The notes: a model not told the origin generated them from the sequence alone. A stretch of DNA of 64,000 bases from Flavobacteriales bacterium (GCA_016124845.1 WGMW01000013.1:46064-110063), one strand, 5' to 3'. Counted from the first letter of the stretch, positions 7,513-63,504 are shown. A program made the numbers and translations.

Positions 7513-7689
7513 CGGACCTCTTTGCCTTCGGCATCTCTCCAAACAAGACAATGGAGTTTTGGAAGCATCAACTATCGGCCTCTGTGAAACGCAGAAACGC
7601 CTAATATCTCTGTGTAATAGAACCCCACACGAACATGGAGACATAAACCATTAAATTTGCCCAATTAGTTAGTTCAAGCAACCGAAAAG

Positions 7690-12547: not shown

Positions 12548-13204
12548 ATGGCAATTGATAAGAATGGCATAGCAAAACGAATTGCACAGGAGCTGCGGGA
12601 CGGATATTACGTGAACCTCGGAATCGGGATTCCGACCTTGGTGGCCAATTACATTCCCGAAGGGATAGAAGTGGAATTCCAATCAGAGAACGGAATTCTC
12701 GGAATGGGACCTTTTCCCTACGAAGATGAGGTGGACGCAGACCTGATCAACGCGGGAAAACAGACCATTACAGCCCGTCCGGGAGCCGTGTTCTTTGATT
12801 CGGCCACCAGTTTTGCCATGATCCGTGGCCAACACGTGCAGCTAACGGTTCTGGGGGCCATGGAGGTGGCTGACAATGGCGACATCGCCAACTGGAAAAT
12901 TCCTGGCAGAATGGTGAAGGGAATGGGCGGAGCGATGGATCTTGTCGCTTCGGCAGAGAACATCATCGTGGCCATGATGCATACGAACAAGGCGGGCGAA
13001 TCGAAGCTGTTGAAAAAATGTACGCTTCCGATCACAGGCGTTGGCTGTGTGAAACGCGTGGTAACCAACTTGGCTGTTCTGGATGTAACTCCAGAAGGCT
13101 TCAAACTCATTGAGTGTGCGCCCGGAGTTTCGGTGGAGGAGATTGTGAATGCAACCGAAGGAAGATTGGTGGTAGAAGGCGAAATCCCTGAGATGAAGCT
13201 GTAA
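12548..13204 (+). CDS. scoB: 3-oxoacid CoA-transferase subunit B
   Basis: 218 aa with the conserved SENGxLG(M/I)GP glutamate active-site motif ([10 protein letters not shown]). Confidence 0.88.
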
Positions 13205-25191: not shown

Positions 25192-25941
25192 ATGTCCAAG
25201 ATCTTTTGGCCGTTCAAAATGCTGTGGAGAGGATGGTTCTTCGTGAGCTGCTTCCTCACGCTGATGCCGTTGTTTCCGTTCTTCTACTATTTCGTTCACA
25301 ACGAAAAGCACTTCAAAAAGGCCATGTTCCTGAAGCGTATCTGGGCACGCATGATCTGTTTCGTGACGGGTGTTTGGAGCACCGTGGAGGTGGAAGAACC
25401 GCTCGTAGATGGCCCGTACATCATCGTTCCCAACCATGTTTCGTTTGTGGATATCGTGCAATCGTACATCGCATTTCCCATCTATTTCCATTACATGGGA
25501 AAGGTACAATTGGGCAAATGGTGGTTCTTCAACATTTTCTTCCACAAGATGAATATCCTGATCGATCGCACGAACCTGCGGGCTTCTTACAACTCGTATC
25601 AGCGCGCGGCCGATGACCTTAAAAAAGGCATTTCCATTGGCGTTTATCCCGAATCGATCATTCCCGATAATCCTCCGAAGATGCTGCCCTTCAAGAACTC
25701 ACCGTTCAAGATCGCCATCGAAGCACAAGTTCCCGTTGTTCCCGTTACTTTTGTGGGCGGCTGGAAAATTCTGCCCGCCAAACCACACGTGTGGGAAGGC
25801 GGTAGACCTGGAGGAACGTTCATCAAAATTCACCGTCCGATTCCTACAAAAGGAATGACCGTGAAAGATGTGGACAGCCTGCGGGACAAGGCACAGGATG
25901 TGATCCGACAAGAACTGAAACGACATGGATATAACGGATAA
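25192..25941 (+). CDS. plsC: 1-acyl-sn-glycerol-3-phosphate acyltransferase (lysophospholipid acyltransferase)
   Basis: HX4D motif (VPNHVSFVDI), N-terminal TM, PlsC-like size. Confidence 0.8.
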   Translation: MSKIFWPFKMLWRGWFFVSCFLTLMPLFPFFYYFVHNEKHFKKAMFLKRIWARMICFVTGVWSTVEVEEPLVDGPYIIVPNHVSFVDIVQSYIAFPIYFHYMGKVQLGKWWFFNIFFHKMNILIDRTNLRASYNSYQRAADDLKKGISIGVYPESIIPDNPPKMLPFKNSPFKIAIEAQVPVVPVTFVGGWKILPAKPHVWEGGRPGGTFIKIHRPIPTKGMTVKDVDSLRDKAQDVIRQELKRHGYNG

Positions 25942-26227
25942 AACGGTTGATGAGCTGGCGCACTTGGCGCGATTGCAGTTTGAAGGCGAGGAAAAAGAGC
26001 GCATCAAGAAGGATCTGAACAAGATCCTCACCTTCATGGAAAAGCTGAATGAGCTTGATACCGATGGCGTGGAACCGCTCATTTACATGTCGGAAGAACT
26101 GAACGTGATGCGCAAGGACGAGAAGAAACAGACCATCACACAAAAGCAAGCACTCAAAAACGCTCCGAAAGCCGATTCAGATTACTTCAAGGTTCCGAAG
26201 GTTCTAAAGAATCCAGATGCTGAATAG
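25925..26227 (+). CDS. gatC: Asp-tRNA(Asn)/Glu-tRNA(Gln) amidotransferase subunit C
   Basis: 100 aa, MDITDKTVDELAHLARLQFEGEEKERIKKDLNKIL... typical GatC. Its last about 55 nt are repeated at 28398..28452. Confidence 0.85.
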   Translation: MDITDKTVDELAHLARLQFEGEEKERIKKDLNKILTFMEKLNELDTDGVEPLIYMSEELNVMRKDEKKQTITQKQALKNAPKADSDYFKVPKVLKNPDAE

Positions 26228-26346
26228 CTCGGATTCGCTTTCGTTCAGAGAAATAATGTTGAAAACGTTTCTTACAAACGGCTGAACGTTTGAAGAAACC
26301 ATCTATTTTTGATAACCATGTTTAAGGTTGCATAACTTGGTTATCC

Positions 26347-27612
26347 ATGAAAGAGTATTATAGCATTTCGGAAGTAGCCGACCTTCTGGGCAAGAGCAAG
26401 GAGACGCTGAGACGTTGGGACAACAACGGAAAGTTGACCGCAGTGCGCGAACCGATGAGCAACTATCGGGTTTACCACAAAGATCAGCTGCGCATTTTCG
26501 ATGAGTTGGCGTTTCTGTTCAATGAGGCTGAAACACAGGACGCGGTCAAAGCAAAACTTGATTATTCGGTTTTAGAATTGTTTGCAGGTGCCGGTGGGCT
26601 TGCCATCGGTCTGGAACAGTCAGGACTGAAATGTGTAGGACTCAACGAGATCGATCATTGGGCAGCTGAAACGCTGAGAAGGAACCGCCCGAACTGGAAC
26701 GTGATGGAAGGGGATGTCCGCAATATGGATTTCTCCGAATTTGAAGGAAAAGTTGATGTGGTCACAGGCGGATTTCCGTGTCAGGCGTTCAGCTACGCTG
26801 GGAAAAAGCTGGGGCTGAAAGACGCTCGCGGAACGCTCTTCTACGAATTTGCGCGCGTGGTACAGCAGACCAGGCCACTGATCTGCATGGGCGAAAATGT
26901 CCGTGGGCTTCTGAACCATGATGGTGGTAGAACGCTTGAAGGTCTGCGCTCCATTTTGGACGAGATCGGGTATCGGGTTCTGGAGCCGAAAATTCTCAAG
27001 GCAATTTTTTATAATGTTCCTCAAAAAAGAGAGCGTTTGATCTTGATCGGCATCAGAAAGGACGTTGATGTCGATTTCCTTTTTCCGAAACCATACAAAA
27101 AGATCTACACCGTAAAGGACGCCCTGAAGGCCGGAGAACTTTACGCCACCGATGTGCCGAAATCTGCTGGTTCCAAATACCCCGAACACAAGAAGAAGGT
27201 CTTAGATCTGGTTCCTCCAGGAGGTTATTGGCGCGACCTTCCAATTGACCTCCAAAAGGAGTATATGCAGAAGAGCTTTTATCTCGGAGGAGGTAAAACA
27301 GGGATGGCACGTAGGATAAGTTGGGATGAACCAAGCCTTACCCTAACATGCAGTCCAGCGCAGAAGCAAACGGAAAGATGCCATCCTGATGAAACCAGGC
27401 CATTTACCGTTAGAGAGTACGCGCGGATACAGACATTTCCGGATGATTGGAAATTTGCGGGCGCTGTTTCACAACAGTACAAACAGATCGGCAATGCCGT
27501 TCCGTGCAACCTTGCCAAAGAGCTCGGTTTTTCATTGGTCCGGTTTCTGAATAGTGCTTATTCTTCCAAGCTCATTGATGCCAGAACACAAAAGACCGTT
27601 GTAAGTGGATGA
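26347..27612 (+). CDS. DNA (cytosine-5)-methyltransferase with N-terminal HTH regulatory domain (type II R-M modification subunit)
   Basis: C5-MTase motifs I (FAGAGGLAIG), IV (GGFPCQAFS), VI (ENVRGL), X (QIGNAVP). First about 55 aa (MKEYYSISEVADLLGKSKETLRRWDNNGKL...) form a MerR/excisionase-like HTH, as in autoregulating M.SsoII/M.MspI-type enzymes. Confidence 0.9.
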   Translation: MKEYYSISEVADLLGKSKETLRRWDNNGKLTAVREPMSNYRVYHKDQLRIFDELAFLFNEAETQDAVKAKLDYSVLELFAGAGGLAIGLEQSGLKCVGLNEIDHWAAETLRRNRPNWNVMEGDVRNMDFSEFEGKVDVVTGGFPCQAFSYAGKKLGLKDARGTLFYEFARVVQQTRPLICMGENVRGLLNHDGGRTLEGLRSILDEIGYRVLEPKILKAIFYNVPQKRERLILIGIRKDVDVDFLFPKPYKKIYTVKDALKAGELYATDVPKSAGSKYPEHKKKVLDLVPPGGYWRDLPIDLQKEYMQKSFYLGGGKTGMARRISWDEPSLTLTCSPAQKQTERCHPDETRPFTVREYARIQTFPDDWKFAGAVSQQYKQIGNAVPCNLAKELGFSLVRFLNSAYSSKLIDARTQKTVVSG

Positions 27613-27647
27613 TGTGACATTGCTTACTTTCACCGTTCATAAACAGC

Positions 27648-28379
27648 TTGAACGGAATGGCAAAACTCAATTGGATCTCTGACGGGAATCTGAACGCAGC
27701 AGTTTCTCACCTGCTTGAAAAGGCGAAAGCTGCAAAATCAGCAGCTGAAAAGGAGTTTGGAAAGAATGTCATAGACCCGTTCTCAGCACTTTTCGAGATT
27801 GCCGCATTCGAATTGAATTATGACGATTGGAAGAAAAGTGAAACCGCGCGTCAGGCACAGAAAACGCTTCAGAATCACGTTGGGGAATTTCATCAACGAA
27901 TATTGGGAAGCGTTGACGGTTGGGAGAACTTGGAAGTTGGAAACGAGGTTGATCTTGCAAATCACAACCGGAAGATCATTGCCGAGATAAAGAACAAGTA
28001 CAATACCATGAAAGGCAGCGACAAGTCTGGTCTTTACCACACGCTCGATGACCTGACAATGAGGAAGTCAAGTAAATTCCGCGGCTATACTGCTTACTAC
28101 GTTACAATTATTCCAAACAGGAAGGCCAAGTTCAATAAGTTGTTTACGCCTTCTGATAAGAGTAAAGGAGCGAAGTGTCCTCCCAATGAATTGATCAGAG
28201 AAATTGATGGGGCAAGTTTTTATGATCTGGCAACTGGTGTCACCAACTCATTGAAAGAACTTTTCGAGGTGTTACCTTCTGTTGTGTCCGAAGTGAGTGA
28301 AGGAAAACTATCCGTTTCTAAAGAAGAGGTGCAACAGTTTTTTGCCGCTGCGTACGGAGTGCTGGAGAAACCAAGATGA
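27648..28379 (+). CDS. type II restriction endonuclease (PD-(D/E)XK fold), cognate to upstream MTase
   Basis: 243 aa directly downstream of MTase. GNEVDL...IIAEIKNK matches the D...(D/E)xK nuclease motif. Sizes (421/243 aa) are reminiscent of Eco47II/Sau96I-type systems, but specificity cannot be established. Confidence 0.65.
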   Translation: MNGMAKLNWISDGNLNAAVSHLLEKAKAAKSAAEKEFGKNVIDPFSALFEIAAFELNYDDWKKSETARQAQKTLQNHVGEFHQRILGSVDGWENLEVGNEVDLANHNRKIIAEIKNKYNTMKGSDKSGLYHTLDDLTMRKSSKFRGYTAYYVTIIPNRKAKFNKLFTPSDKSKGAKCPPNELIREIDGASFYDLATGVTNSLKELFEVLPSVVSEVSEGKLSVSKEEVQQFFAAAYGVLEKPR

Positions 28380-28397
28380 TGAGAAGGGCTCACCGGA

Positions 28398-28452
28398 CCG
28401 ATTCCGATTACTCAAAGCTCCACATGTTCTTAAGAATCCTGATGCTGAATAA
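28398..28452 (+). repeat. degenerate direct repeat of gatC 3' end (remnant KAPHVLKNPDAE* coding segment)
   Basis: Aligns to 26172..26227 with about 80% identity (one 1-nt indel). Immediately followed by the start of the next gene, as expected for the original gatC end. Confidence 0.8.
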
Positions 28453-28458
28453 CTATAT

Positions 28459-28869
28459 ATGACGATCACTATTTCAACCACGGTCGATGCGCCCATTGCC
28501 AAGGCGTGGGAAGTTTGGACCAAACCCGAATTTATTGTTCAATGGAATTTTGCAAGCGATGATTGGTGCTGCCCAAGCGCGGTGAATGACCTTCGACCAA
28601 ATGGAAAATTTTCGTGGAGAATGGAAGCCAAAGACGGAAGTTTTGGGTTTGATTATGGCGGAGATTATGTGGAGGTTCTCGAAAATGAACGCATCGAGAT
28701 GCTATTGGGAGACGGACGAAAGGTGGAGGTTCTGTTTGCACACCAGAACGGCCAGACAATTGTTACCGAGTCGTTTGAGACAGAAGATGTGAACTCGGCC
28801 GAAATGCAAAAACAAGGCTGGTCTGCCATTCTTGGTAATTACAAGAAGTGCGTTGAGGCAAACGCCTGA
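28459..28869 (+). CDS. SRPBCC / AHSA1 (Aha1-like) domain protein
   Basis: 136 aa, ...AKAWEVWTKPEFIVQWNFA... pattern typical of activator-of-Hsp90-ATPase-homolog-like SRPBCC proteins. Confidence 0.65.
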   Translation: MTITISTTVDAPIAKAWEVWTKPEFIVQWNFASDDWCCPSAVNDLRPNGKFSWRMEAKDGSFGFDYGGDYVEVLENERIEMLLGDGRKVEVLFAHQNGQTIVTESFETEDVNSAEMQKQGWSAILGNYKKCVEANA

Positions 28870-28884
28870 CCACGTTCTGAAGCA

Positions 28885-28927
28885 ACAAAAAAGGCCGCTT
28901 CCAACATCTGGAAGCGGCCTTTTCAAT
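28885..28927. terminator. bidirectional rho-independent terminator
   Basis: AAAAAGGCCGCTTCC-aacatct-GGAAGCGGCCTTTT: 12-bp GC-rich stem flanked by A-run and T-run, between convergent genes. Confidence 0.8.
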
Positions 28928-28942
28928 TTCGTAAATCGCTAA

Positions 28943-29353
28943 TCAACAGAACTCATCAAAAGCGGCTGTCAAATTCTCCGCGATCATTTCCGCTGGGCGA
29001 CCTTCAATGTGGTGGCGCTCAATGAAATGAACCAAGTTCCCGTCTTTGAAAAGCGCAATACTCGGACTGCTTGGTGGATAAGGCGCCATGTACTGACGTG
29101 CCTGCGCCACCGCATCTTTATCGAAACCCGCAAAAACCGTAGTTACTCGGTCTGGCGTTTTGCTGTGCTTTACGGCCATTTTCATGGCTGGGCGGGCATT
29201 GCCTGCGGCACAACCACAGACCGAATTGATAAAAACCAACGTGGTTCCATCAGCCTTGATGGCGTTATCAACGTCTTCGGGTGTAAGCAGTTCCTCAACA
29301 CCTGCTGAGGTAATGTCCTGCTTCATCGGTATAACTATTTCTGGAGGATACAT
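28943..29353 (-). CDS. bacilliredoxin (BrxA/BrxB, YphP/YqiW family, DUF1094)
   Basis: Conserved ...GTTLVFINSVCGCAAGNARPA... with the family-defining CGC motif. Confidence 0.8.
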   Translation of the reverse strand: MYPPEIVIPMKQDITSAGVEELLTPEDVDNAIKADGTTLVFINSVCGCAAGNARPAMKMAVKHSKTPDRVTTVFAGFDKDAVAQARQYMAPYPPSSPSIALFKDGNLVHFIERHHIEGRPAEMIAENLTAAFDEFC

Positions 29354-29448
29354 ATCACAAATTTTTAGGTTCAGAAATCAAATTTCGGTGTCCAAAGTTA
29401 CCGTTTATCTAAACCCATTCTAAATAACTTTGTTCTGCTCAAAAGCGA

Positions 29449-30039
29449 ATGCGTATGCGCTACAATCTCAGCGAAATCAAAGCCGTTATCGAGGACAGGC
29501 GGACCATCCATCCAGAAAATTACTCCACCCGTGTGGTGCAAAAGGAAATAATCAAGGAATTGCTCGATGCCGCTAAGTGGGCACCCACGCATCGGTACAC
29601 GCAACCGTGGTTCTTCAAAGTATTTGTTGGAGATGGGTTGAAAAAACTCTCCGAATTCCAGTCTGAACTTTACAAAGAGGTGAAAGGTGATGCGTTTGAG
29701 GAAGAGAAATATCAAAAGTTGAAAGCACGCCCGCTGATGGCAACAGCCATTATCGGTATCGGAATGAAGCGGGATGAAGCAGAACGCGATCCCGTTGAGG
29801 AAGAAATTGCTTCCGTTGCGATGGCTGTTCAGAACATGAAACTGTTGGCAGCCGCACACGGGATTGGAGCATTTTGGGCTTCTGGCGGGGTAACTTATTT
29901 GCCGCAGACCAAAGAATGGATCGGGTTGGGAGAAAAAGACAAATTCCTCGGATTCCTTTATCTTGGTTACCCGAAAGATGGTTGGCCGCGAAAGACGCGC
30001 AGAAAGCCACAGGAATATTACACAGAATGGGTTGAATAA
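29449..30039 (+). CDS. NAD(P)H nitroreductase family protein
   Basis: 196 aa. RRTIHPENYS...ELLDAAKWAPTHRYTQPW... typical nitroreductase fold signature. Confidence 0.8.
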   Translation: MRMRYNLSEIKAVIEDRRTIHPENYSTRVVQKEIIKELLDAAKWAPTHRYTQPWFFKVFVGDGLKKLSEFQSELYKEVKGDAFEEEKYQKLKARPLMATAIIGIGMKRDEAERDPVEEEIASVAMAVQNMKLLAAAHGIGAFWASGGVTYLPQTKEWIGLGEKDKFLGFLYLGYPKDGWPRKTRRKPQEYYTEWVE

Positions 30040-30075
30040 CCCCTCTGCCTTCGGCATTCTCCCCCAAGGGGAGAA
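30040..30075. repeat. REP-like palindromic element (copy 1)
   Basis: CCCCTCTGCCTTCGGCATTCTCCCCCAAGGGGAGAA: two hairpins (GCC-TTCG-GC; TCTCCCC/GGGGAGA). Near-identical copy at 38004..38039. Degenerate copy at 7513..7549. Confidence 0.6.
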
Positions 30076-30080
30076 CGTTT

Positions 30081-30518
30081 TTGGGGCTTTACCTACGTAC
30101 TTACTTTATTCGTTCACATGTATTATTCGTATCAGTTTTGAGTTGGAAAGACTTTTTTAAAGGAAATGGCACGGTTTCAACCTCTAAGGTGCCATGGAAG
30201 AATCTGACAGAGGAGCAACAGATTCAGAATATTGTAGAGCTATCGCACGAAAAACCGCAGCTGATCTTTAAGCACAGCACGCGCTGTTCCATCAGCATAA
30301 TGGCCAAAAGCAGATTGGACTCGGATTGGAACCTGGAAAACGTGGAACCGTGGTACCTCGACCTGCTTTCCTATCGCAATGTTTCCAATGCGGTGGCATC
30401 ACAATTGGGCGTGCAACACGAATCTCCGCAGGCCATTCTGCTGAAAGATGGCGTGGTCGTGCATGACAGTTCGCACAATGCTATTTCACTTCGCGAGTTG
30501 AGGAGGTGGGATAGGTAA
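30081..30518 (+). CDS. ytxJ: bacillithiol-system redox protein YtxJ (monothiol, TCPIS-type motif)
   Basis: ...EEQQIQNIVELSHEKPQLIFKHSTRCSISIMA... matches the YtxJ family (KHSxxCxIS). True start is probably downstream of the track ATG (non-ATG start), since the family is about 110 aa. Confidence 0.7.
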   Translation: MGLYLRTYFIRSHVLFVSVLSWKDFFKGNGTVSTSKVPWKNLTEEQQIQNIVELSHEKPQLIFKHSTRCSISIMAKSRLDSDWNLENVEPWYLDLLSYRNVSNAVASQLGVQHESPQAILLKDGVVVHDSSHNAISLRELRRWDR

Positions 30519-30584
30519 AGAATTTCCCGACAATTTGTCGGCACAATGTCACCAAACGCTATATTTGGGGAAAGCCTCAAATAA

Positions 30585-31181
30585 ATGGTATTGCTTGATA
30601 TTGGGAGTTGGTGGAATGGCCTGATGACGGTAGAAAAGATCTACTGGGGCATCGCCATTCTTGCATCTATTTTCTTTCTCATTCAACTGGTCATCACGTT
30701 CATGGGAGCGGATGCGGATGTCGATATGGAGATGGACCTTTCTACCGATATGGAAGTGGAAATGGACCACGGAATGGGATTTCAGTTCTTCACGCTGAAG
30801 AACCTGCTGGGCTTTTTCACACTCTTCGGCTGGACGGGTCTCGGCTGCCTGGACATGGGACTTTCATTGTTCCCGACCTTGGCCATTTCGAGTGCCAGCG
30901 GACTGGTAATGATGACCATCATGGCCACTATTTTCTACTTTATGAGCCAAATGACAGACAGCGGCACCATCAACATGAAAAACGCCATTGGTCAGACAGG
31001 AACCGTTTATTTGGTCATTCCTGCCAAACGTGCAGCCATTGGCAAGGTGAGTTTGGAAATTCAGGGAAGGAACATGGAGATGAATGCGATTACTGATGAT
31101 GAGACCGAAATCCCGACAGGAGGGGTGGTCGTGGTCTCGCAGGTCATCAACAACGGTCTTCTATTAGTAAAACGTCAATAA
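30585..31181 (+). CDS. NfeD-like membrane protein (YqiJ-like) with C-terminal OB-fold
   Basis: N-terminal TM helices, acidic D/E/M-rich linker, C-terminal beta-rich domain (...GTVYLVIPAKRAAIGKVSLEIQGR...). Located directly upstream of a flotillin gene, as in yqiJK/nfeD-floT pairs. Confidence 0.65.
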   Translation: MVLLDIGSWWNGLMTVEKIYWGIAILASIFFLIQLVITFMGADADVDMEMDLSTDMEVEMDHGMGFQFFTLKNLLGFFTLFGWTGLGCLDMGLSLFPTLAISSASGLVMMTIMATIFYFMSQMTDSGTINMKNAIGQTGTVYLVIPAKRAAIGKVSLEIQGRNMEMNAITDDETEIPTGGVVVVSQVINNGLLLVKRQ

Positions 31182-31190
31182 TCTAAACCT

Positions 31191-32810
31191 ATGAGTTATA
31201 TCATTATCGGAGTAGTTGCGGGAATTCTGTTCCTGTTTGTGCTTATTGTTTCATTGCTGGCGCGATACAAGCGCTGCCCTTCTGACCACATTTTGGTGGT
31301 TTATGGTAAGGTCGGTAGCGATGCCGAAGGCGGCCGTTCGGCCAAGTGTATTCACGGTGGCGCGGCTTTCATTTGGCCGATCTTTCAGGATTACGCCTTT
31401 TTGGATCTGACACCGCTTTCCATTGAGGTGAATCTCACATCTGCATTGAGCCGTCAGAACATCCGTGTGGATGTACCGTCACGCTTTACCGTTGGTATTT
31501 CTACAGAACCAGCCACCATGGTCAATGCGGCCGAGCGTCTCCTTGGTCTTTCCAAGCAGGATATTCACAACCTCGCCATCGACATCATTTTCGGTCAGTT
31601 GCGTCTTGTGGTTGCCACCATGGACATTGAAGAGATAAACAACAACCGCGACAAGTTCCTCTCGAACGTGGCAAGCAACGTGGAGGCGGAATTGCAGAAG
31701 ATCGGCCTCAAGCTCATCAACGTGAACGTAACGGACATCAAGGATGAGTCAGGCTACATCGAAGCACTTGGAAAAGAAGCGGCCGCTAAAGCGGTGAACG
31801 ATGCAAGAAAGACCGTTGCCGAGAAAAACCGTGATGGTTCTATCGGTGAATCGATCGCGCAGAAAGATGAGCGAGTGCAAGTAGCTGCGGCCATTGCTGA
31901 GGCGAAGATCGGGGAAGCGGCAGCGAATCAGAACGAGCGTGTTCAGGTGGCAAGTGCCGATTCGAAAGCAAAAGTGGGCGAGGCTGAGGCCAACGCCAAC
32001 GCGAGAATCGGAGAAGCCGAGGCCCAGAAACAGGAAAGAATGAGTGTTGCCGAGGCGAACGCCCGAGCGGTTGAGGGAGAAAACACATCAAGAATTGCCA
32101 TTGCCGATTCAGACTCAGAGAGAAGGCAGCGGGAAGCAGAGGCGGTGAAAAAAGCGGTGGCGATGGAAAAGGTTTCTCAGGCGAGAGCCTTGGAAGAGGC
32201 CTACGCGGCTGAGGAAAAAGCAGAACGCGCCCGTGCCGAGAAAGAGCGCGCCACGCAAACTGCCAATCAGGTTGTAAGCGCGGAGGTTGATAAGACCAAG
32301 ATCGAGATCGATGCCGAGGCGGAAGCAGAGCGCATCCGAAGAATTGCCAAAGGTGAGGCCGATGCGATCCTGTTCAGAAAACAAGCGGAGGCACAAGGTC
32401 TTTACGAGGTATTGAGCAAGCAGGCGCAAGGTTTCCAACAATTGGTCAGCGCGGCTGGAAACAACTCGAAAGATGCAGCCATGCTGATGATCGCGGACAA
32501 ACTGGAACAGCTTGTAAGACTTCAGGCCGAGGCCATCCAGAATGTGAAGATCGACAAGGTGACGGTTTGGGACAGCGGTTCGAAAGGAAAGGACGGCAAG
32601 ACAAACACGGCCGACTTCATCTCTGGAATGTACGGTTCCGTTCCGCCTTTGCAGGAGATGTTCCAAATGGCAGGGTTGAATCTGCCTGAATACCTGAAAG
32701 GAAAAGAGGGTGGAGATGAGGAAGTTCAGGATGCTGGGGTGGAAGAAAAACCAGCACCGAAATCTGCTCCAAAGGATGACTCCGACAAGAACGAAAAAGA
32801 GGAAAAGTAA
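31191..32810 (+). CDS. flotillin (SPFH/band 7 family) protein
   Basis: N-terminal TM, SPFH domain, long Ala/Glu-rich coiled-coil (flotillin EA repeats), C-terminal acidic tail. 539 aa. Confidence 0.85.
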   Translation: MSYIIIGVVAGILFLFVLIVSLLARYKRCPSDHILVVYGKVGSDAEGGRSAKCIHGGAAFIWPIFQDYAFLDLTPLSIEVNLTSALSRQNIRVDVPSRFTVGISTEPATMVNAAERLLGLSKQDIHNLAIDIIFGQLRLVVATMDIEEINNNRDKFLSNVASNVEAELQKIGLKLINVNVTDIKDESGYIEALGKEAAAKAVNDARKTVAEKNRDGSIGESIAQKDERVQVAAAIAEAKIGEAAANQNERVQVASADSKAKVGEAEANANARIGEAEAQKQERMSVAEANARAVEGENTSRIAIADSDSERRQREAEAVKKAVAMEKVSQARALEEAYAAEEKAERARAEKERATQTANQVVSAEVDKTKIEIDAEAEAERIRRIAKGEADAILFRKQAEAQGLYEVLSKQAQGFQQLVSAAGNNSKDAAMLMIADKLEQLVRLQAEAIQNVKIDKVTVWDSGSKGKDGKTNTADFISGMYGSVPPLQEMFQMAGLNLPEYLKGKEGGDEEVQDAGVEEKPAPKSAPKDDSDKNEKEEK

Positions 32811-33200
32811 ATGACAGCTGACGAAACGAAAACCATGTTGGCCTTGCTGGTGCAACTGGCAAAGGCCGATGGAACGGTCGATCTGAAGGAGGATTTCTTC
32901 ATCAAACTGTTTGCCCACAACAACTCCGTGGACCCAGGTGAATTTGACCGCATCTGTCGTTCGCCCGAAATGTATGCGCGCAATCTCGGTTCGCTTACTG
33001 ATAAGGAAGACGTGTTTGTGCGCCTGTGCAGTTTCGTGTATTTCGACATGAAAGCGGATGATGCCGAGTTGGAATGGTGCCGCAACGTGGGCCGTCAACT
33101 GGATCTTTCCGCCACCAAGGTGGACGAGGTCATCAGCACCATCCAAACCAGCGATGCGCCTTTGTCGGTGCAAGAACTTACCGAACTGGTCAAAGCATAA
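32811..33200 (+). CDS. TerB-like domain protein
   Basis: 129 aa starting at the flotillin stop. ...MLALLVQLAKADGTVDLKEDFFI... and ...ADDAELEWCRNVGRQLDLS... resemble the tandem helical repeats of the TerB fold. Confidence 0.5.
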   Translation: MTADETKTMLALLVQLAKADGTVDLKEDFFIKLFAHNNSVDPGEFDRICRSPEMYARNLGSLTDKEDVFVRLCSFVYFDMKADDAELEWCRNVGRQLDLSATKVDEVISTIQTSDAPLSVQELTELVKA

Positions 33201-33236
33201 AATGAAGGCAATTATCTTAGGGCGAAATTCAACCCG

Positions 33237-34244
33237 ATGAGATACCTTTTCCTGTTGGCCGTTCTTGGCCTTGTAAGCTGTTCGCAACCAAAGCAAGAAG
33301 AAGCGGTTGCCGAAACACCATCTTGCGAATACAATGATTTCAAAACCCCTGGCAATTATCAGGCTGGCGGAGTTCAGATGATCGACCTGAAAGAAGGCTA
33401 CAAGGTTTGGACGAAGCGTTTTGGAAACAGCCCGATGAAAGTGCTGATCCTGCACGGTGGCCCAGCGGGAACGCACGAATACTTGGAGAGCTTCCAGAGC
33501 TTTTTCCCGAAGGCGAATATTGAGTTTTTTGAATACGACCAGCTTGGTTCGTATTACTCCGATCAACCGACTGACACCAGCCTTTACAACATACCACGGT
33601 TTGTAGAGGAGGTAGAGCAGGTGCGCCAGAAATTGGGTTTGAACAAGGACAACTTTATTCTTCTCGGACAAAGTTGGGGCGGTATTCTTGCCATGGAATA
33701 TGCACTCAAGTACCAACAGAACCTGAAAGGATTGGTAATCTGCAACATGACGGCCGATTTCCATAAATACGCGGCTTACAACAACAAACTCCGCGAAGAA
33801 CTCCGCCCGAGTTTGGTGGACACGCTGAAGATGTATGAAGACGCGGGCGATTACTCAAACCCTGTTTACTTGGAATTGGTGGAGAAGGAATTCTACGCCA
33901 AACACATTTGCCGCATTTATCCATTTCCTGAGCCAGTTGCGCGCAGCTTCTCGCACTTCAACATGGATGTTTATACCTATATGCAAGGCCCAAGCGAGTT
34001 TGTTCCAGGCGGTATTCTGAAGGACTGGAGCGTTTGGGACAGATTGCATGAAATTTCTGTTCCCACGTTGATGGTCGGAGCCAAGTACGACAGCATGAAC
34101 CCTGAGGAAATGAAGGAGATGTCAACCCTTGTTCAGAACGGGGAATACCTCTACTGCCCGAATGGCAGCCACCTCGCCCTGTGGGACGACCAGCAGGTTT
34201 TTATGGATGGGGTGATCGGGTTTATTCATCGGGTATTCGAATGA
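33237..34244 (+). CDS. proline iminopeptidase-family alpha/beta hydrolase (lipoprotein)
   Basis: Lipoprotein signal MRYLFLLAVLGLVSCSQ, GQSWGG nucleophile elbow, prolyl aminopeptidase-like size. Last about 40 nt are repeated at 34961..35007. Confidence 0.8.
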   Translation: MRYLFLLAVLGLVSCSQPKQEEAVAETPSCEYNDFKTPGNYQAGGVQMIDLKEGYKVWTKRFGNSPMKVLILHGGPAGTHEYLESFQSFFPKANIEFFEYDQLGSYYSDQPTDTSLYNIPRFVEEVEQVRQKLGLNKDNFILLGQSWGGILAMEYALKYQQNLKGLVICNMTADFHKYAAYNNKLREELRPSLVDTLKMYEDAGDYSNPVYLELVEKEFYAKHICRIYPFPEPVARSFSHFNMDVYTYMQGPSEFVPGGILKDWSVWDRLHEISVPTLMVGAKYDSMNPEEMKEMSTLVQNGEYLYCPNGSHLALWDDQQVFMDGVIGFIHRVFE

Positions 34245-34272
34245 GAGCATTTCTGTAACTTCGTAATCGGAA

Positions 34273-34920
34273 ATGTCTCAAAGACTTAAGGATGAATTAC
34301 GAGCTGTCATTTCAGGAAAGAGCAAGGTTAGGTTCGGAGCAACTATCCAAGCAGTTATCAGTAACCTTGGAACAGGCGCGCCAACAAGCACAACGACTCA
34401 AAGCCTTAAGCAGGTCAAAGGTGAAGAAGCAGAGCGCATAAGTGCTTTTGCTCGCAGATCGGGGCTTTGGCAGGAAAGCATCGATATTTCAAACTATGTG
34501 AGCGAGGGCGCAGAACAGAGGGTTTATCTTAAAGACCAAGACCATGTTCTGAAACTGAATGATGCCATCTATTTTGAAACGTGGCGCGACTATCTGCACA
34601 ATCTGTTGCTGCATAATTACTTTTTTACTGACACGGCCTATGAGCTGGTAGGATTTACACAAATAGACCATGTCTTGCATGCCATGGTAAAACAGCGATT
34701 TGTAATAAGTACGATACTTACAGACCTTTCTGAAGTTCGCAGTTTCTTGGAAACGAATGGTTTTAAGAATACGCGAAACAACGATTATTTACATGCTGGC
34801 GCTGGCGTTATTCTGGAGGATCTGCACGATGAGAATGTTCTTACTCAGAATGGCATGCTCTATTTTATTGACACAGTGTTTTATCTGACCCAAGCGTTTT
34901 GGACCGATGAACATGAATAG
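34273..34920 (+). CDS. hypothetical protein with atypical protein-kinase-like motifs (small stand-alone kinase fold?)
   Basis: 215 aa. Gly-rich NLGTGAP. VYLK (beta3 Lys-like). LEDLHDENVL resembles catalytic-loop HxDxxxxN of RIO/Kdo/Bud32-type kinases. YFIDT resembles the DFG-equivalent. No signal peptide. Confidence 0.45.
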   Translation: MSQRLKDELRAVISGKSKVRFGATIQAVISNLGTGAPTSTTTQSLKQVKGEEAERISAFARRSGLWQESIDISNYVSEGAEQRVYLKDQDHVLKLNDAIYFETWRDYLHNLLLHNYFFTDTAYELVGFTQIDHVLHAMVKQRFVISTILTDLSEVRSFLETNGFKNTRNNDYLHAGAGVILEDLHDENVLTQNGMLYFIDTVFYLTQAFWTDEHE

Positions 34921-34960
34921 TTGAGCTACCTTGCCACCAACGGCAATTAAACGGGTTCTT

Positions 34961-35007
34961 TGGATGATGTGATCGGGTTTATTCACCGAACGTTTGAGGA
35001 GGATTAA
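34961..35007 (+). repeat. degenerate direct repeat of the iminopeptidase gene 3' end (remnant LDDVIGFIHRTFEED* segment)
   Basis: Aligns with 34205..34244 (MDGVIGFIHRVFE*) at about 78% nt identity. 10 of 13 encoded residues identical. Confidence 0.75.
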
Positions 35008-36161
35008 CGCCTTGCTCGGCTGAGCCGATAGGAAACCCCAACGGTTGGTAGGATGTAAGGTTTCCCGACCTTATTGATGAACGTAAACGGTTGGCCCAAG
35101 CTCCATATCAGGTTCATTCCAGCAAAACCCGAAAATCCTTTGTCAAGGTTCACTTTCCCGCGCAGCGTGACATAAGGATCCACACTTGCATTGAACAATG
35201 AGGCGGCAAGCCCCCCACCAACCTGAAACCCTGTGTTGTTCCAAAGAAACGCCATTCCCATATCCAAGTGGCCTTGAAGCAATGGCATGGCGGTTCCCAA
35301 GCCTGTTCGGAAATAGTAGTTGGCCACTTTGCGAGGAGAAAGAGGCACATAAAGCGTGTAGTGAACCGTTACCACAGCAGGGCCGAAAATGCTTAGACCG
35401 AATTCGCTGTTTCGCCAAATTAGCCCTGTATCCTGCTGAGCAACTTCGGCAAGCGTGTTTCGCAAGCGTTCCCGCTCGGTTTTACGGTAAGCGTTTCGTT
35501 CTGGCCGTTCCATCCTTGCGTATGCCACAAACTCCTTGTGCTGTTTCCACGAAGGAATGCGATACCCGATATAAGCACTTGGCCAAATAGAGAAAACGGG
35601 ATAGTTGTTCCGTTTGCTTATCGTTGGCCCATATTCGGACTGGCCACCGATCAAGTAGAGTTTTGTCCCGAACAGGAATCCCGTGGGAGCCTGATACCGA
35701 TACCCGACCGAGCCGAAGAGGTTGAATTCCATGTAGGCAGGGATAGGTTCCCAATATGGGTTTTGAGTTTGCGAGAAGTATACGTTCCATAGGCCACCAC
35801 CAATCGTCAATCGGTTTCTGCGCCTCCCGAATTCGGCTGAAAGCGCGTATATCAGAGAGGCCCTGTATTTGATATATCCAGCGGTATAGGGACCGAGAGC
35901 TCCAGCACCGAAACGAATGTTCAAGGTCATGATGTCGGTCATGATCGGAGAACCCTCAAGGTTCAAGGTCACGCCTGTTCCCAGCCCTAAGAACTCAGTG
36001 TAGGAAGCAACCCTGCCCAAAAACGGGCGGAAGGCCACCTTACGGCCAGCACCATTCACATCATCGATCTTTGGGAGTTGAGCCAGGCCAAACTTCCCAA
36101 CAAGAAGGATTAAAACAAGCGTAGTTGTCCAGCGCATGCGTTGGACAACGAAACGAAACAA
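35004..36161 (-). CDS. hypothetical outer-membrane beta-barrel protein
   Basis: Signal peptide, alternating amphipathic beta-strand pattern, aromatic-rich, C-terminal ...VSYRLSRARR. 385 aa. Confidence 0.55.
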   Translation of the reverse strand: MFRFVVQRMRWTTTLVLILLVGKFGLAQLPKIDDVNGAGRKVAFRPFLGRVASYTEFLGLGTGVTLNLEGSPIMTDIMTLNIRFGAGALGPYTAGYIKYRASLIYALSAEFGRRRNRLTIGGGLWNVYFSQTQNPYWEPIPAYMEFNLFGSVGYRYQAPTGFLFGTKLYLIGGQSEYGPTISKRNNYPVFSIWPSAYIGYRIPSWKQHKEFVAYARMERPERNAYRKTERERLRNTLAEVAQQDTGLIWRNSEFGLSIFGPAVVTVHYTLYVPLSPRKVANYYFRTGLGTAMPLLQGHLDMGMAFLWNNTGFQVGGGLAASLFNASVDPYVTLRGKVNLDKGFSGFAGMNLIWSLGQPFTFINKVGKPYILPTVGVSYRLSRARR

Positions 36162-37984: not shown

Positions 37985-39958
37985 ATGAAAAACAACCCCA
38001 CAAGCCCCTCTGCCTTCGGCATCTCCCCAAAGGGGAGAATCCTGCTTGCAAGCAGCCTTCGTCTTTCCTTTGTTCTTGTTCTCTTTTTTCTTTTTTCTCC
38101 CGCCCAAGCGGGTGGAGGCAAGGAAGGCGACAAAACCCTTGGACAAACCCACTACAGCCCCGAACCGCAGTACAAAGCGGCCTTCGATTATTATTCGCGG
38201 TATGTGCCGATGAGCGATGGCGTGAAGCTGGCGGTGGATGTCTTTCTCCCAAAGAATTTGGAGGAAGGAAAGAAGGTGCCGACCGTAGTTTATTTCGTTC
38301 GGTATGTGCGAACATTCGAGCTCAAAGCCTTTTGGCGTGGACTGAAAGACCCAGCTTTCGGAAGTGTTGCCGAGGATGAGGTCAAGTTCTTCAACTCGCA
38401 CGGTTATGCTGTCGCGATTGTTGACTTGCGCGGAACGGGCGCGTCTTATGGTCACCGCGACATGGAATTTTCGCCACAGGAAGTGAACGACATGGGGCAG
38501 ATGCTCGATTGGATCGTGAAAGAACCGTGGTCTGATGGGAAGACCGCCACCACTGGAATCTCCTACACGGGAACAACGGCCGAGTTGGCGCTCATTACGA
38601 AGCACCCATCGCTGAAAGCGTGTGTTCCGCGCAGCAATATCTGGGACCTCTATACCGACATCGTTTTTCCAGGAGGAATCCGTCAGTCACCGTTCATTAA
38701 GGTTTGGAAGTTGACCACCAACTCGCTGGATAACAATAACATGTCGGTTTTCGGGAAGAAGATCGACACGTTTGTGAAACAGCCGCACCCTGTCGATGGC
38801 GACAAAAAGGGAGAGGAGCTGCATGTGGCCATGGAGCAGCACAAGGACAACTACGACATTTTCGATGGCCTTTATCGCATTGAGGCGCGTGATGAACCAG
38901 ACCGTGGCCACGGTGCGGAGCTAACGGCAGACGACTGTAGCATTCACAACCGTAAAGAAGACATTCAGGCGGGTGGTGTTCCGATCTTCCGTATCTCGGG
39001 TTGGTTCGATGGTGCGCTTCCGAACTCGGTTTTCAAAGGTTTTTGGAACACTTCGAACACCAAGCGGGTGATGATCGGTCCTTGGGATCATGGTCCAGGG
39101 CAATACTTCACCAATTTCACAGGAAACAAGGAAAAGGAACTCAACATCAAAATGGAGATACTGCGGTTCCTGGATCAATATGTGAAGGGAATCGACACGG
39201 GATTGGATAAGGAACCGCCAGTTAATTATTTCACCATGGGCGAGCAGGCGTGGAAGGCTTCCAACACGTGGCCCCCAAAAGAGGTGCAATCGACCGAGAT
39301 GTTCTTTTCGCCAGAATTGCTTGAGAACGAAAAACCCGCCAAGGAAGAGATCGTGACGTACAATTGCGATTACAACACCACAACAGGCTACGGGGAAAAA
39401 GGTGGTGGCACACGCTGGAACTCATTGACCACGCTCTACAAATATGAGAAAACGTATTACGGCCCGCGAGGAGGTCAGGATCTGTTGATGGAGGTTTTTG
39501 ATGGGCCCGTTCTGGAAAAGGATGTGGAGATAACGGGTCATCCAGAAGTTCATTTGAATTTGAGCACCAACACAGGAGAAGGCCATGTTTTCGCGTACTT
39601 GGAAGAAGTGCTTCCTGACGGCACCAGCCGCTACATCACCGAAGGGATGCTCGACATCAACCATGTGAACCTGTGCAAGGATGGCGATTATTCGTGCTGT
39701 TTTCCACAGCATTCGTTCAAAGAGAAGGACATGGTGAAACTCAAACCAGATGAGTTTAAGAAGACGGTCATCAACATGATTCCGACCAGTTATACGGTCA
39801 TGGCGGGCAATCGAATCCGAATGGCAATAGGAGTGGCCGATAAGGATCATTTCGACATTCCCGAAGAAAGCATCCGACCAGAAAAACTGAATATCAAAAC
39901 GGGCGGAGATAACGGTAGTTTTGTCCGTCTTCCTATTGTTTACAAAGACGTCAATTGA
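37985..39958 (+). CDS. CocE/NonD family hydrolase (X-Pro dipeptidyl-peptidase S15-like), secreted
   Basis: ...YVPMSDGVKLAVDVFLP... N-terminal catalytic-domain start, GISYTG nucleophile motif, C-terminal beta-sandwich. Start codon uncertain (REP element lies in the 5' end). Confidence 0.8.
   Translation: MKNNPTSPSAFGISPKGRILLASSLRLSFVLVLFFLFSPAQAGGGKEGDKTLGQTHYSPEPQYKAAFDYYSRYVPMSDGVKLAVDVFLPKNLEEGKKVPTVVYFVRYVRTFELKAFWRGLKDPAFGSVAEDEVKFFNSHGYAVAIVDLRGTGASYGHRDMEFSPQEVNDMGQMLDWIVKEPWSDGKTATTGISYTGTTAELALITKHPSLKACVPRSNIWDLYTDIVFPGGIRQSPFIKVWKLTTNSLDNNNMSVFGKKIDTFVKQPHPVDGDKKGEELHVAMEQHKDNYDIFDGLYRIEARDEPDRGHGAELTADDCSIHNRKEDIQAGGVPIFRISGWFDGALPNSVFKGFWNTSNTKRVMIGPWDHGPGQYFTNFTGNKEKELNIKMEILRFLDQYVKGIDTGLDKEPPVNYFTMGEQAWKASNTWPPKEVQSTEMFFSPELLENEKPAKEEIVTYNCDYNTTTGYGEKGGGTRWNSLTTLYKYEKTYYGPRGGQDLLMEVFDGPVLEKDVEITGHPEVHLNLSTNTGEGHVFAYLEEVLPDGTSRYITEGMLDINHVNLCKDGDYSCCFPQHSFKEKDMVKLKPDEFKKTVINMIPTSYTVMAGNRIRMAIGVADKDHFDIPEESIRPEKLNIKTGGDNGSFVRLPIVYKDVN
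38004..38039. repeat. REP-like palindromic element (copy 2)
   Basis: CCCCTCTGCCTTCGGCATCTCCCCAAAGGGGAGAA, followed by a perfect 14-bp palindrome CTGCTTGCAAGCAG (38042..38055). Confidence 0.6.
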
Positions 39959-55261: not shown

Positions 55262-56287
55262 ATGATACTTGTTACCGGAGGAACGGGGCTTTTAGGGTCG
55301 CATCTACTGCTTAAATTGGTTGAGAACGGGGAGCGCGTGAGGGCGATCTACCGCACGGAGGCCAAGCGCGATTCGGTGATAAGAACCTTTGGCTATTACC
55401 ATGAAAATCCGCAAAGCATCTGGGAAAAGATAGAGTGGGTAAAAGGCGATGTACTTGATGTGCACAGTTTGGAAGATGCGCTGGAAGGCGTGGAGCAAGT
55501 GTATCATTGTGCGGCAGGCGTTACGTTCCTACCTGCCGAGCAGCCGTACATGCACAAGGTGAATGTGGAAGGAACGGCCAATGTCGTGAACCTGTGTTTG
55601 GAGTGTGATGGCGTGCGCCTGTGTCATGTCAGTTCGGTGGCGGCCATTGGCCGAGATGGTTCGGAAGAGGTGATCAGCGAGAAGAACGAGTGGAAGGATT
55701 CCGATCACAATGCAGCCTACGCGGTAAGCAAGTACCACGCAGAGATGGAGGTTTGGCGCGGTATTGTGGAAGGGCTGGACGCGTTCATGGTCAATCCATC
55801 ACTCATTATCGGCCCTGGCGATTGGAACGCCAGCACGGGCGCCATGTTCCGAAGAACGTGGAACGGACTGCCTTTCTACACGCGAGGCGGAAACTGTTTC
55901 GTGGATGTGTTGGATGTGGCCGAGGTGATGATCCGTTTGATGGCATCGGATGTACGTAACGAGCGCTTCATTGTGGGAGCGGAGAACAGGAAGTTCAAGG
56001 AAGTGTTTGAGCGGATTGCAACTCACATGAACAAGAAGTCACCTCGCTTTGAGGCCACGCCTTTGATGACCGAACTCACGTGGCGCGCGGAGAAATTGGT
56101 GAGCGCGGTAACTGGTAAAAAGCCGTTCATCACCAAAGAAGTGGCGCATCATGCCATGCAACTGAACCGCTACGACAACAGCAAATTGCTGAAAGCGTTA
56201 CCGGATTTCAAGTTCAAAGATCTGAATGAAACGCTGGAATTCATTTGCCAGCAGTACGTGAAAGAGGCGACTACTGGTCAGAGTTGA
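55262..56287 (+). CDS. NAD-dependent epimerase/dehydratase (extended SDR) family protein
   Basis: [15 protein letters not shown] Rossmann start, YxxxK (YAVSKYH). Confidence 0.8.
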
Positions 56288-56624
56288 CCTCCGATTCCAG
56301 CTCCGAAAGCTGTTCCAGCACCTTATCGTAGATCACGTTCATCTCTTCCGTGCGGGTAGAATAGTAGTACAGGCTGCTGTCAAACTCGGTTTTGGTAACT
56401 CCGTGAGAAACAAAAATGGACTCGAACATCCGATCATAGTTCAGATTGGCCGAATCGGGTTCGATCACCTTCAGGTTCTGTGCTGTTTCCACCAAGTGCA
56501 TATCCACCATTACCGAAACCATTTTGTCTTCATCCAGCAGATAATCGGGCTTCTTTTCCGCGTTCTCTTGGCACGAGCCAAACCAAAGGCAGCCAATAAC
56601 CAATAACCAATAACGACCGTTCAT
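56271..56624 (-). CDS. hypothetical lipoprotein (DUF4296-like)
   Basis: MNGRYWLLVIGCLWFGSCQE lipobox. 117 aa. Confidence 0.5.
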   Translation of the reverse strand: MNGRYWLLVIGCLWFGSCQENAEKKPDYLLDEDKMVSVMVDMHLVETAQNLKVIEPDSANLNYDRMFESIFVSHGVTKTEFDSSLYYYSTRTEEMNVIYDKVLEQLSELESEVNSDQ

Positions 56625-63123: not shown

Positions 63124-63504
63124 ATGGAGAAGTGGATCATAGAGGCAACTGACCGCACGCCCAGTGTGGTGCTCGATCGTCAGGAATCGACCCTGCGTAT
63201 TGAAGGTCGTTCGTACCCCGAAGAAGGCATGGACTTCTTCGACCCGATCATTCTGCGCTTCAAAACATTGGAGGATTCCCAAACACCAATCCGCATGGTG
63301 CATGTGCGGTTGGAGTACTACAACTCATCCACCACCAAGGCGTTGGCCGAACTTTTTACCGCCCTCGTAAAGGCCAAGGGGCATGGGTTCGATGTAAAGG
63401 TCATTTGGGAGTTTGAGGAGGAGGATGATGGCATTCAGGAAGACATCGACATGTTCATCGACACGTTCGATCTGCCATTCGAGATCCGTTACACGCACTT
63501 CTAA
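63124..63504 (+). CDS. DUF1987/SiaC-family protein
   Basis: 126 aa. MEKWIIEATDRTPSVVLDRQESTLRIEGRSYPEEGMDFFDPI... matches the conserved N-terminal pattern of SiaC-like proteins. Confidence 0.6.
   Translation: MEKWIIEATDRTPSVVLDRQESTLRIEGRSYPEEGMDFFDPIILRFKTLEDSQTPIRMVHVRLEYYNSSTTKALAELFTALVKAKGHGFDVKVIWEFEEEDDGIQEDIDMFIDTFDLPFEIRYTHF

Follow-up and report, generated by a model that had tools for sequence, protein, structure and literature searches.

Displaced gene termini beside two cargo cassettes in a Flavobacteriales genome, probable scars of recombination between cargo-plus and cargo-minus haplotypes

We use comparison with related genomes to study two gene insertions in a 64-kb stretch of DNA (the window) from a metagenome-assembled genome of an uncultured member of the Flavobacteriales; loci from its relatives are numbered L001-L149. 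The genes between 25 and 36 kb were mapped by open reading frame (ORF) and Pfam analysis, with the flotillin and TerB-like labels taken from precomputed Pfam hits to identical genes in L082. In order, this part of the window carries an acyltransferase gene, gatC, a C5 cytosine methylase gene (M), an Eco47II-family endonuclease gene (R), an AHSA1 gene, a DsbIso-like gene on the minus strand, a nitroreductase gene, the gene for the bacilliredoxin BrxC, a three-gene flotillin block, the hydrolase gene pip, a Kinase-PolyVal gene (locus tag GC178_06690), an outer-membrane-like ORF on the minus strand and lysS. The restriction-modification (R-M) pair stands behind gatC and the kinase gene behind pip. 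An initial annotation of this DNA had proposed that both are built in the same three parts, and cargo-free relatives agree: the host gene ends in a terminus of foreign type, the cargo follows, and the resident terminus of the host gene is retained downstream, at its old neighbour.

The repeated termini are short but stand out clearly from the background. At gatC, the last 56 nt of the gene plus 2 nt match the displaced copy with 83% identity over 58 alignment columns (pair A; coordinates of all features are given in Table 1); the right copy has one 1-nt deletion that breaks the frame, and weaker similarity extends back to about 28388. The two copies enclose M and R, an insert of ~2.2 kb (26230-28387). 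At pip, the two copies agree at 86% of 36 columns, including an identical 17-nt core, and enclose the kinase gene (pair B); here the frame of the remnant stays open as far as 35005-35007, a stop codon that overlaps that of the convergent outer-membrane-like gene. When the whole window is compared with itself by BLAST, pair A ranks first among direct repeats (E = 2.5e-8) and pair B third (E = 0.007); the second rank belongs to a hairpin resembling repetitive extragenic palindromes (REP), and pairs A and B are the best of the non-REP direct repeats. Among 1,165 control genes from 1.5 Mb of Bacteroidota loci, nine reach a score of at least 36, while the gatC pair scores 64. For pip we scored the last 80 nt of the gene against the 6 kb downstream at 84 pip loci and find a downstream copy only in kinase-bearing loci (scores of 45 and 39), the rest reaching 30 at most. 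Both layouts sit at coordinates that had been given beforehand, and the same scar structure is present in L081 and L082, independent assemblies of the population from two sequencing runs.

Comparison across relatives reveals three states of the gatC site. In the cargo-free state (L142, L143/L144 and L145), AHSA1 begins 5-8 nt after gatC and is followed by DsbIso. In L136 and L138/L139 the R-M unit is present without a scar, in the order gatC-M-R-terminator-DsbIso, with neither remnant nor AHSA1, and R is 84-90% identical to that of the window. The window itself has cargo plus remnant. This remnant ends 4 nt (CTAT) before the start codon of AHSA1 at 28459, a spacing close to the native gaps of 5-8 nt, and thus it represents the gatC terminus still joined to its natural neighbour. 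The two copies bear the marks of different lineages: the in-gene copy has the L138-type markers of the R-M lineage (CCAGA...TAG), whereas the remnant has L143-type markers (CCTGAT...TAA), is frameshifted and ends in ...PDAE-stop (TAA). Within gatC, identity to L143 falls from 98% over nt 1-101 to 93% over nt 102-202 and 83% over nt 203-303. In 80-nt windows it is as high as 97% within the first ~200 nt (25925-26125), and the sequence type breaks near 26125, beyond which the remaining ~100 nt of the gene belong to a different type. L138 shares the gatC-M leader. At the far end of the cargo, R terminates in AAYGVLEKPR-stop where its homologues end in AAYN, AAFG or AAYGVD; this extension is unique to the window, which argues for an illegitimate junction in the last codons of R, at about 28362, where the R C-terminus meets gatC at -65 to -90 in a non-homologous join. 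In L140 and L141 the R-M unit lies at other sites, without flanking repeats.

Two further features of this site deserve mention. A palindromic site, ATAACCAT...TGGTTAT (26302-26354), lies upstream of M and is conserved at each site that has the R-M unit, probably as an autoregulatory operator of the methylase, which carries a MerR-type helix-turn-helix (HTH). The flanking acyltransferase gene and the AHSA1-DsbIso region are only ~80% identical to L143, against 93-98% for the start of gatC.

The same three states are found at the pip site. Cargo-free pip ends in ...HRTF(E/Q)xx-stop and converges directly on lysS (L143, L006, L001 and L002). In L146, which is fully syntenic, the order is pip-kinase-lysS, the kinase is 88% identical to that of the window and pip has the cassette-type terminus, but the cargo leaves no scar: the kinase stop abuts the lysS stop, there is no remnant, and the flanks score no better than chance. 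Kinase and scar occur together in the window, L083, L132 and L133, and these four share the cassette-type terminus HR[VTI]F[ER]-stop, a 28-nt promoter-like spacer and an arm of ~33 nt, while the final part of the remnant differs between genomes. The initial annotation had the last 40-55 nt of each host gene replaced. A terminus of different type is indeed present in both, but its extent is about the last 100 nt in gatC and only the last ~16 nt in pip (34229-34244, HRVFE-stop), which is colinear with its relatives up to 34231, of native type to about 34228 and of the type common to L083, L132, L133 and L146 thereafter. In the remnant, the stretch GTGATCGGGTTTATTCACCGAACGTTTGAG is identical at 30/30 positions to the cargo-free end of L006 and encodes ...VIGFIHRTFEED-stop. 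Both copies look chimeric, native and then cassette-type in the gene, cassette-type and then native in the remnant. The BLAST alignment of the window to L146 runs beyond the kinase stop by 19 nt, which in L146 belong to the lysS 3' end, and these lysS-like 19 nt meet pip at about -55 in a second non-homologous join; the first part of the arm is probably an imported lysS flank joined there. A mosaic test along pip (window against L132, L006 and L001) reveals no tract of raised identity next to the cassette, and no lysS 3' remnant was found beside the outer-membrane-like gene in the window.

The spacer upstream of the kinase contains a TAnnTTTG-like element, TAACTTCG, which we read as a -7 promoter box of Bacteroidota. 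GTAACTTCGTAATC, also upstream of the kinase, was not taken for a loxP-like site but for a TAnnTTTG-type promoter box; a box of this kind precedes the start codon by ~20 nt in most kinase homologues. These homologues number 3,602 and are mostly Bacteroidota proteins of ~213 aa; by PADLOC, the kinase of the window is not a catalogued defence protein.

Similar scars occur beside neighboring genes in relatives. In L132 (1316-2750), DsbIso on the minus strand is followed by a gene for a 261-aa cargo protein and then by a 125-nt remnant of the DsbIso 3' end with 96% identity, which still precedes its own 3' untranslated region and terminator; the two copies differ only at their ends, and only synonymously, and this is the most recent-looking example. 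In L133 (4124-11606), lysS has two 3'-end remnants behind it, one of 66 nt and the other of ~450 nt; an IS4-type transposase gene, a DUF2971 gene, a kinase pseudogene and AAA_14/DUF4143 ATPase genes lie between the two. The layout is thus seen at four host genes (gatC, pip, DsbIso and lysS) of one 12-kb neighborhood, with remnants of 36-450 nt. The kinase pseudogenes of these two relatives (L132:6001-6186 and L133:6001-6186) share an internal deletion of ~370 nt despite different flanks. We also note that pip is fragmented in the L133 contig.

The reading that we favor, and that we hold to be probable though well short of certain, is that recombination between cargo-plus and cargo-minus haplotypes left both layouts as scars, each with one homologous and one illegitimate junction. 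The three haplotype states at both sites, the positions of the junctions, the variable lengths of the remnants and the absence of recombinase genes are direct observations; from these we infer the order and direction of events and the enzymology. DNA of one haplotype would find a homologous partner at just one of its sides, namely gatC or pip (or the downstream neighbor, if the event ran in mirror image), and its other end would undergo illegitimate joining within the resident host gene, a few tens of bases from the 3' end. An intact gene terminus would arrive with the imported DNA, so that the host gene would stay functional, and the resident terminus would be pushed downstream, still attached to its old neighbor (AHSA1 at gatC, the convergent gene at pip). 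Either direction of transfer would yield the same product. The homologous junction looks to be the switch of sequence type inside gatC near 26125 and, in pip, the switch of terminus in the last 16 nt; the identity profile of gatC suggests that 25925-26125 is a short recombination patch and that homologous exchange is frequent in the group. Host recombination and end joining would suffice for such events (homology-facilitated illegitimate recombination, HFIR, in the broad sense), with no need for an element-encoded or site-specific recombinase, and the kinase unit with its flanking arms would then pass among related lineages by inheritance or ordinary homologous recombination. In so compact a genome, the neighbor of an insertion or deletion is always the 3' end of a host gene, and a one-sided event would therefore leave such a stub; joints that leave cargo, host gene and the neighbor's signals intact would be favored by selection.

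Table 1. Features of the two cassettes and their surroundings (positions in the 64-kb window)
Feature	Position	Strand	Evidence
gatC, host gene of cassette A	25925..26227	+	Pfam GatC 2.4e-24; sliding identity and mismatch map
Repeat A left, gatC terminus, in-gene copy	26172..26229	+	Sequence comparison; R-M-lineage markers
Leader of R-M unit, with palindromic operator-like site	26230..26346	+	Conserved upstream of M in L136, L138, L140, L141
C5 cytosine DNA methyltransferase M, N-terminal MerR-type HTH, cargo A	26347..27612	+	Pfam DNA_methylase 1.8e-80, MerR 4.3e-8; PADLOC MTase_II
Eco47II-family restriction endonuclease R, cargo A	27648..28379	+	Pfam RE_Eco47II 1e-55; junction sequences
Displaced gatC terminus, repeat A right	28388..28454 (core 28398-28454)	+	Sequence comparison
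AHSA1/SRPBCC gene, original downstream neighbor of gatC	28459..28869	+	Pfam AHSA1 3.3e-17
DsbIso-like gene	28943-29353	-	ORF/Pfam analysis
Flotillin block, three genes (o198 30585-31181, flotillin 31191-32810, o129 32811-33200)	30585-33200		
pip, alpha/beta-hydrolase, S33 aminopeptidase-like family, host gene of cassette B	33237..34244	+	Pfam Abhydrolase_1/Hydrolase_4; alignment
Repeat B left, inside pip	34196..34231	+	Sequence comparison
Spacer upstream of kinase, holding TAACTTCG	34245..34272	+	Conserved in all five kinase-bearing relatives
Stand-alone Kinase-PolyVal gene, cargo B	34273..34920	+	Pfam PF18762 1.9e-63
Cassette-associated arm after kinase stop	34921..34953	+	Conserved in L083, L132, L133
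Displaced pip terminus: repeat B right (34954-34988) and native end	34954..35007	+	Alignment to relatives
Outer-membrane-like ORF between pip remnant and lysS, no Pfam hit	35004..36161	-	Comparison with relatives

Several observations weigh against this scenario. Exact-protein look-ups aimed at cargo-free genomes of the same species returned only the same population, and the closest parental haplotypes found, at about 80-90% nucleotide identity, are too distant for reading the junction microhomologies or the direction of transfer. Three cargos have their ends about 5-30 nt from the remnant, a tight spacing that random HFIR joints do not predict unless compactness or selection is invoked. The ~33-nt arm is only weakly assignable to lysS: in shuffle tests the best p is 0.004-0.03 before correction for multiple tests, lysS and upstream pip are both weak as sources, and only the BLAST extension into L146 favors lysS. 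Significant flanking direct repeats are present at 12 of 46 testable Kinase-PolyVal loci compared with 4 of 762 control genes, and in L086 a four-copy array of a 280-nt repeat is interleaved with cassettes; this array and the excess of repeats around kinases could reflect a more specific process.

How else might two unrelated cargos acquire the same architecture? One possibility is integration by a site-specific recombinase encoded elsewhere, in the manner of cis-mobilizable elements (CIMEs) or integrons, in which case the termini would be attB sites and the remnants attR sites. This would account for direct repeats around compact cargo beside gene 3' ends, for the identical 17-nt core of the pip repeat, for the enrichment of flanking repeats around kinase homologues and for the repeat-separated array of L086 with its toxin-antitoxin cassettes. 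We nevertheless consider it very unlikely. A Pfam scan of 53 of the 56 called window ORFs (all but 56271-56624, 63124-63504 and 63501-63965), which also took in further ORFs of the 25-36 kb region including pip and the nitroreductase gene, detected no integrase, transposase or resolvase; flotillin, o198 and o129 were scanned against PADLOC only. No tyrosine or serine recombinase was found in the window scans or in the flanks of those kinase loci with listed called genes, and the initial annotation was thus right to describe the cassettes as lacking a recombinase in the region. It was right, too, that the two host 3' ends have no sequence in common. Neither cassette end has terminal inverted repeats or attC-like palindromes, although no dedicated attC model was run, and no motif common to the cassette ends was found. 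The repeats at kinase loci matched no tRNA or Rfam family (Rfam, ARAGORN) apart from a tRNA-Met near one distant locus, and neither phage nor plasmid records nor IMG/VR contigs gave a match to the kinase that would indicate a vector. The lysS remnants vary in length from 66 to about 450 nt, the same cargo occurs at the same sites without a remnant (R-M in L136 and L138, kinase in L146), the R-M unit occurs elsewhere without repeats (L140 and L141), and one illegitimate joint lies inside the C-terminus of R. These remnant-free haplotypes, the repeat-free R-M units, the variable remnants and the lack of a shared end motif or inverted repeats also speak against the trans-acting system targeting gene 3' ends that the initial annotation had raised; its alternative, one-sided homology with illegitimate recombination, fits best. 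A related suggestion, that the cassettes are self-propagating and depend on RecA, looping out through the flanking repeats and re-entering at a homologous terminus by a single Campbell-type crossover that regenerates the repeats, would have the cargo gene carry a mimic of the host-gene terminus. It has a published precedent in the virus-like life cycle of R-M units hypothesized by Kobayashi's group (PMC2853133), and it would make sense of the chimeric look of both pip copies, of the kinase unit with the same arms in four genomes with different downstream DNA and different native ends, of the ~370-nt kinase deletion shared by L132 and L133 in different contexts, and of the compact cassettes and the tandem array of L086. 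Yet the crossover would have only ~17-36 nt of diverged homology to work with, the same sites also occur with cargo but no remnant, and no circular or tandem forms were seen; moreover, both pip copies of the window are native-like over their shared core, where a single reciprocal crossover would need donor and recipient to be the same. We regard this suggestion as unlikely.

Highly improbable, and already largely refuted, is the idea that the terminus was first duplicated in tandem and the cargo landed between the copies, or that the similarity is due to chance or faulty assembly. Although "chance insertion between repeated sequences" is one of the classes recognized by Furuta et al. (PMC2853133), relatives lacking cargo carry just one terminus, the repeats score far above the empirical null, the two copies bear markers of different lineages, and the independent assemblies L081 and L082 show the same structure. 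Tandem duplication, which the initial annotation had named as a possible refutation, is accordingly a highly improbable origin of the remnants. We think it quite unlikely, finally, that these Flavobacteriales have a dedicated, cargo-independent process for mobilizing cassettes, whether through a distant recombinase or through a loop-out/Campbell cycle with short terminus mimics; the tight junctions, the excess of repeats at kinases and the L086 array together keep a Campbell-type or recombinase model alive at low probability. If real, such a process would insert single-gene cassettes with their own promoters next to the 3' ends of core genes, and it would explain the kinase-repeat excess, the close approach of cargo stop and remnant, and the presence of the L086 array downstream of pip.

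We now compare the layouts, read as scars of recombination between haplotypes, with systems already described. Insertion of R-M units with long target duplication was reportedly seen by Nobusato and colleagues in 2000. The pattern is described by Furuta, Abe and Kobayashi (Furuta et al., 2010, PMC2853133), who define it by an insert of less than 20 kb with R and M, direct repeats of more than 30 bp that are single copy in the insert-lacking genome, and no linked mobility gene; their examples from H. influenzae include 46-bp repeats over the 3' ends of HI0105 and HI1589, and they report the pattern mostly from competent species, with its mechanism unresolved (PMC2853133). The window is similar in having an R-M pair in an insert of ~2.2 kb with no linked transposase, integrase or prophage in the scanned ORFs, repeats over gene 3' ends of 58 nt (gatC) and 36-54 nt (pip), and a single copy in other species (L142, L143 and L145 for gatC; L143, L006, L001 and L002 for pip). 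It differs in that identity between the copies is only 83-86% and their markers come from different lineages; the left copy appears imported, and the repeat may hence not be a true duplication of the recipient target. It differs further in phylum, Bacteroidota not being among the reported cases, in having cargo other than R-M genes (the kinase and the outer-membrane-like gene), and in that our comparisons are between species or genera rather than within a species.

Experimental HFIR events usually come with deletion of recipient DNA, whereas here recipient (or donor) sequence is kept as a short repeat. In HFIR the second joint typically falls at 3-10 nt of microhomology, and the DNA arrives by natural transformation or by some other route for linear molecules. 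What the layouts have in common with HFIR is one homologous anchor and one illegitimate joint, with no element-encoded recombinase needed; the original reports, as they are cited in a later paper, are de Vries and Wackernagel, 2002, Prudhomme et al., 2002, and Meier and Wackernagel, 2003 (in PMC5361080). HFIR has also been proposed (PMC5361080) for C-terminal displacement and orphan arrays at Rhs, contact-dependent inhibition (CDI) and type VI secretion system (T6SS) effector-immunity loci (Jackson et al., 2009; Kirchberger et al., 2017, PMC5361080). As in those systems, a conserved gene body gains a new 3' end plus cargo while the old 3' end is kept downstream (gatC, pip), and the two orphan lysS termini of L133 are reminiscent of orphan arrays. 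Unlike in those systems, the hosts are housekeeping genes (gatC, a hydrolase gene, a DsbIso-like gene and lysS) rather than polymorphic toxins, and the displaced pieces are short non-functional stubs of 36-450 nt with no cognate immunity gene. CIMEs and integron cassettes offer a looser parallel, being compact, recombinase-less cargo with repeats beside a gene 3' end and possible arrays; however, we found no integrase or attC-type palindrome at the window cassettes, and in contrast to CIMEs neither repeat length nor crossover point is fixed, the sequences of the two sites are unrelated, and the same cargo occurs at the same site without repeats. In contrast to DNA transposons and insertion sequences, no terminal inverted repeats, short fixed target-site duplication or transposase was found. 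The window thus reveals no new insertion machinery: the pattern has already been described in other bacteria and is new here in phylum and in cargo.

Elsewhere among kinase loci, repeats take several forms. At other Bacteroidota kinase loci the duplicated targets are often terminator regions, and more distant kinases (L147-L149) have no flanking repeats. A conserved hairpin motif, AAACCGAAATCAA...CGATTTCAGGGGGTGTTTTCCTC, makes up or borders the direct repeats around kinase genes of a freshwater clade (L112, L116, L122, L124, L098/L099/L101/L113); some of these loci also end in a sequence like a tRNA 3' end, TGTAGCGAGACCGGGATTTGAAC, with a full tRNA-Met called only in L117. The array of L086 (3749-7075) lies downstream of a pip homologue (2726-3748) and consists of four copies of the ~280-nt repeat, which is also present in L085, with L128/L129 related; its cargo comprises a ParE toxin-antitoxin pair, a DUF2283/PBECR2-like pair and a Kinase-PolyVal gene, much like an integron cassette array. 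No recombinase was found within about 6 kb of it, the repeat has no Rfam hit, and its interpretation as a structured RNA or attC was set aside, since the folding scores (z = -1.4 and -2.3) are unconvincing.

Judged by gene content across relatives, the region appears as a compact hotspot of gene turnover in the core genome. The initial annotation had suggested a hotspot for turnover of defence genes. Turnover is evident, with alternative cargo at each of four intergenic spots, but defence genes are only part of what comes and goes, the rest including AHSA1, outer-membrane-like proteins, a methyltransferase and the flotillin block. The outer-membrane-like ORF is missing in L143, L001, L002, L006 and L146, with a distant homologue in L004, and is a further variable insert at the pip/lysS spot. 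The flotillin block encodes a membrane protein that we read as putatively NfeD-like, a flotillin/Band_7 protein and a TerB-like protein; it is also present in L143 and absent from L001, L002, L006, L142 and L146, and it has no flanking repeat signature (score 16, chance level). The REP-like hairpin, CCCCTCTGCCTTCGGCATCTCCCCAAAGGGGAGAA, occurs in the window at 30040-30075, 38005-38039 and 7517-7543 and in L006 at 12821-12854. Its copy at 30040 lies within an insert of ~95 nt that separates the nitroreductase and BrxC genes, which overlap in L143 and have an O-methyltransferase gene between them in L142, L136 and L146.

Cargo-free, cargo without remnant and cargo with remnant, found at two sites of one region, make up a natural series of unusual completeness for a pattern first reported in 2000 and never explained, and three further scars at neighboring genes in relatives add to it. 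Unless genomes have been compared, short direct repeats around defence genes should accordingly not be taken for att sites. In metagenome-assembled genomes, displaced gene termini can be used to mark such events, and gene gain at a core-genome hotspot of uncultured, compact Bacteroidota can be accounted for by host recombination alone.

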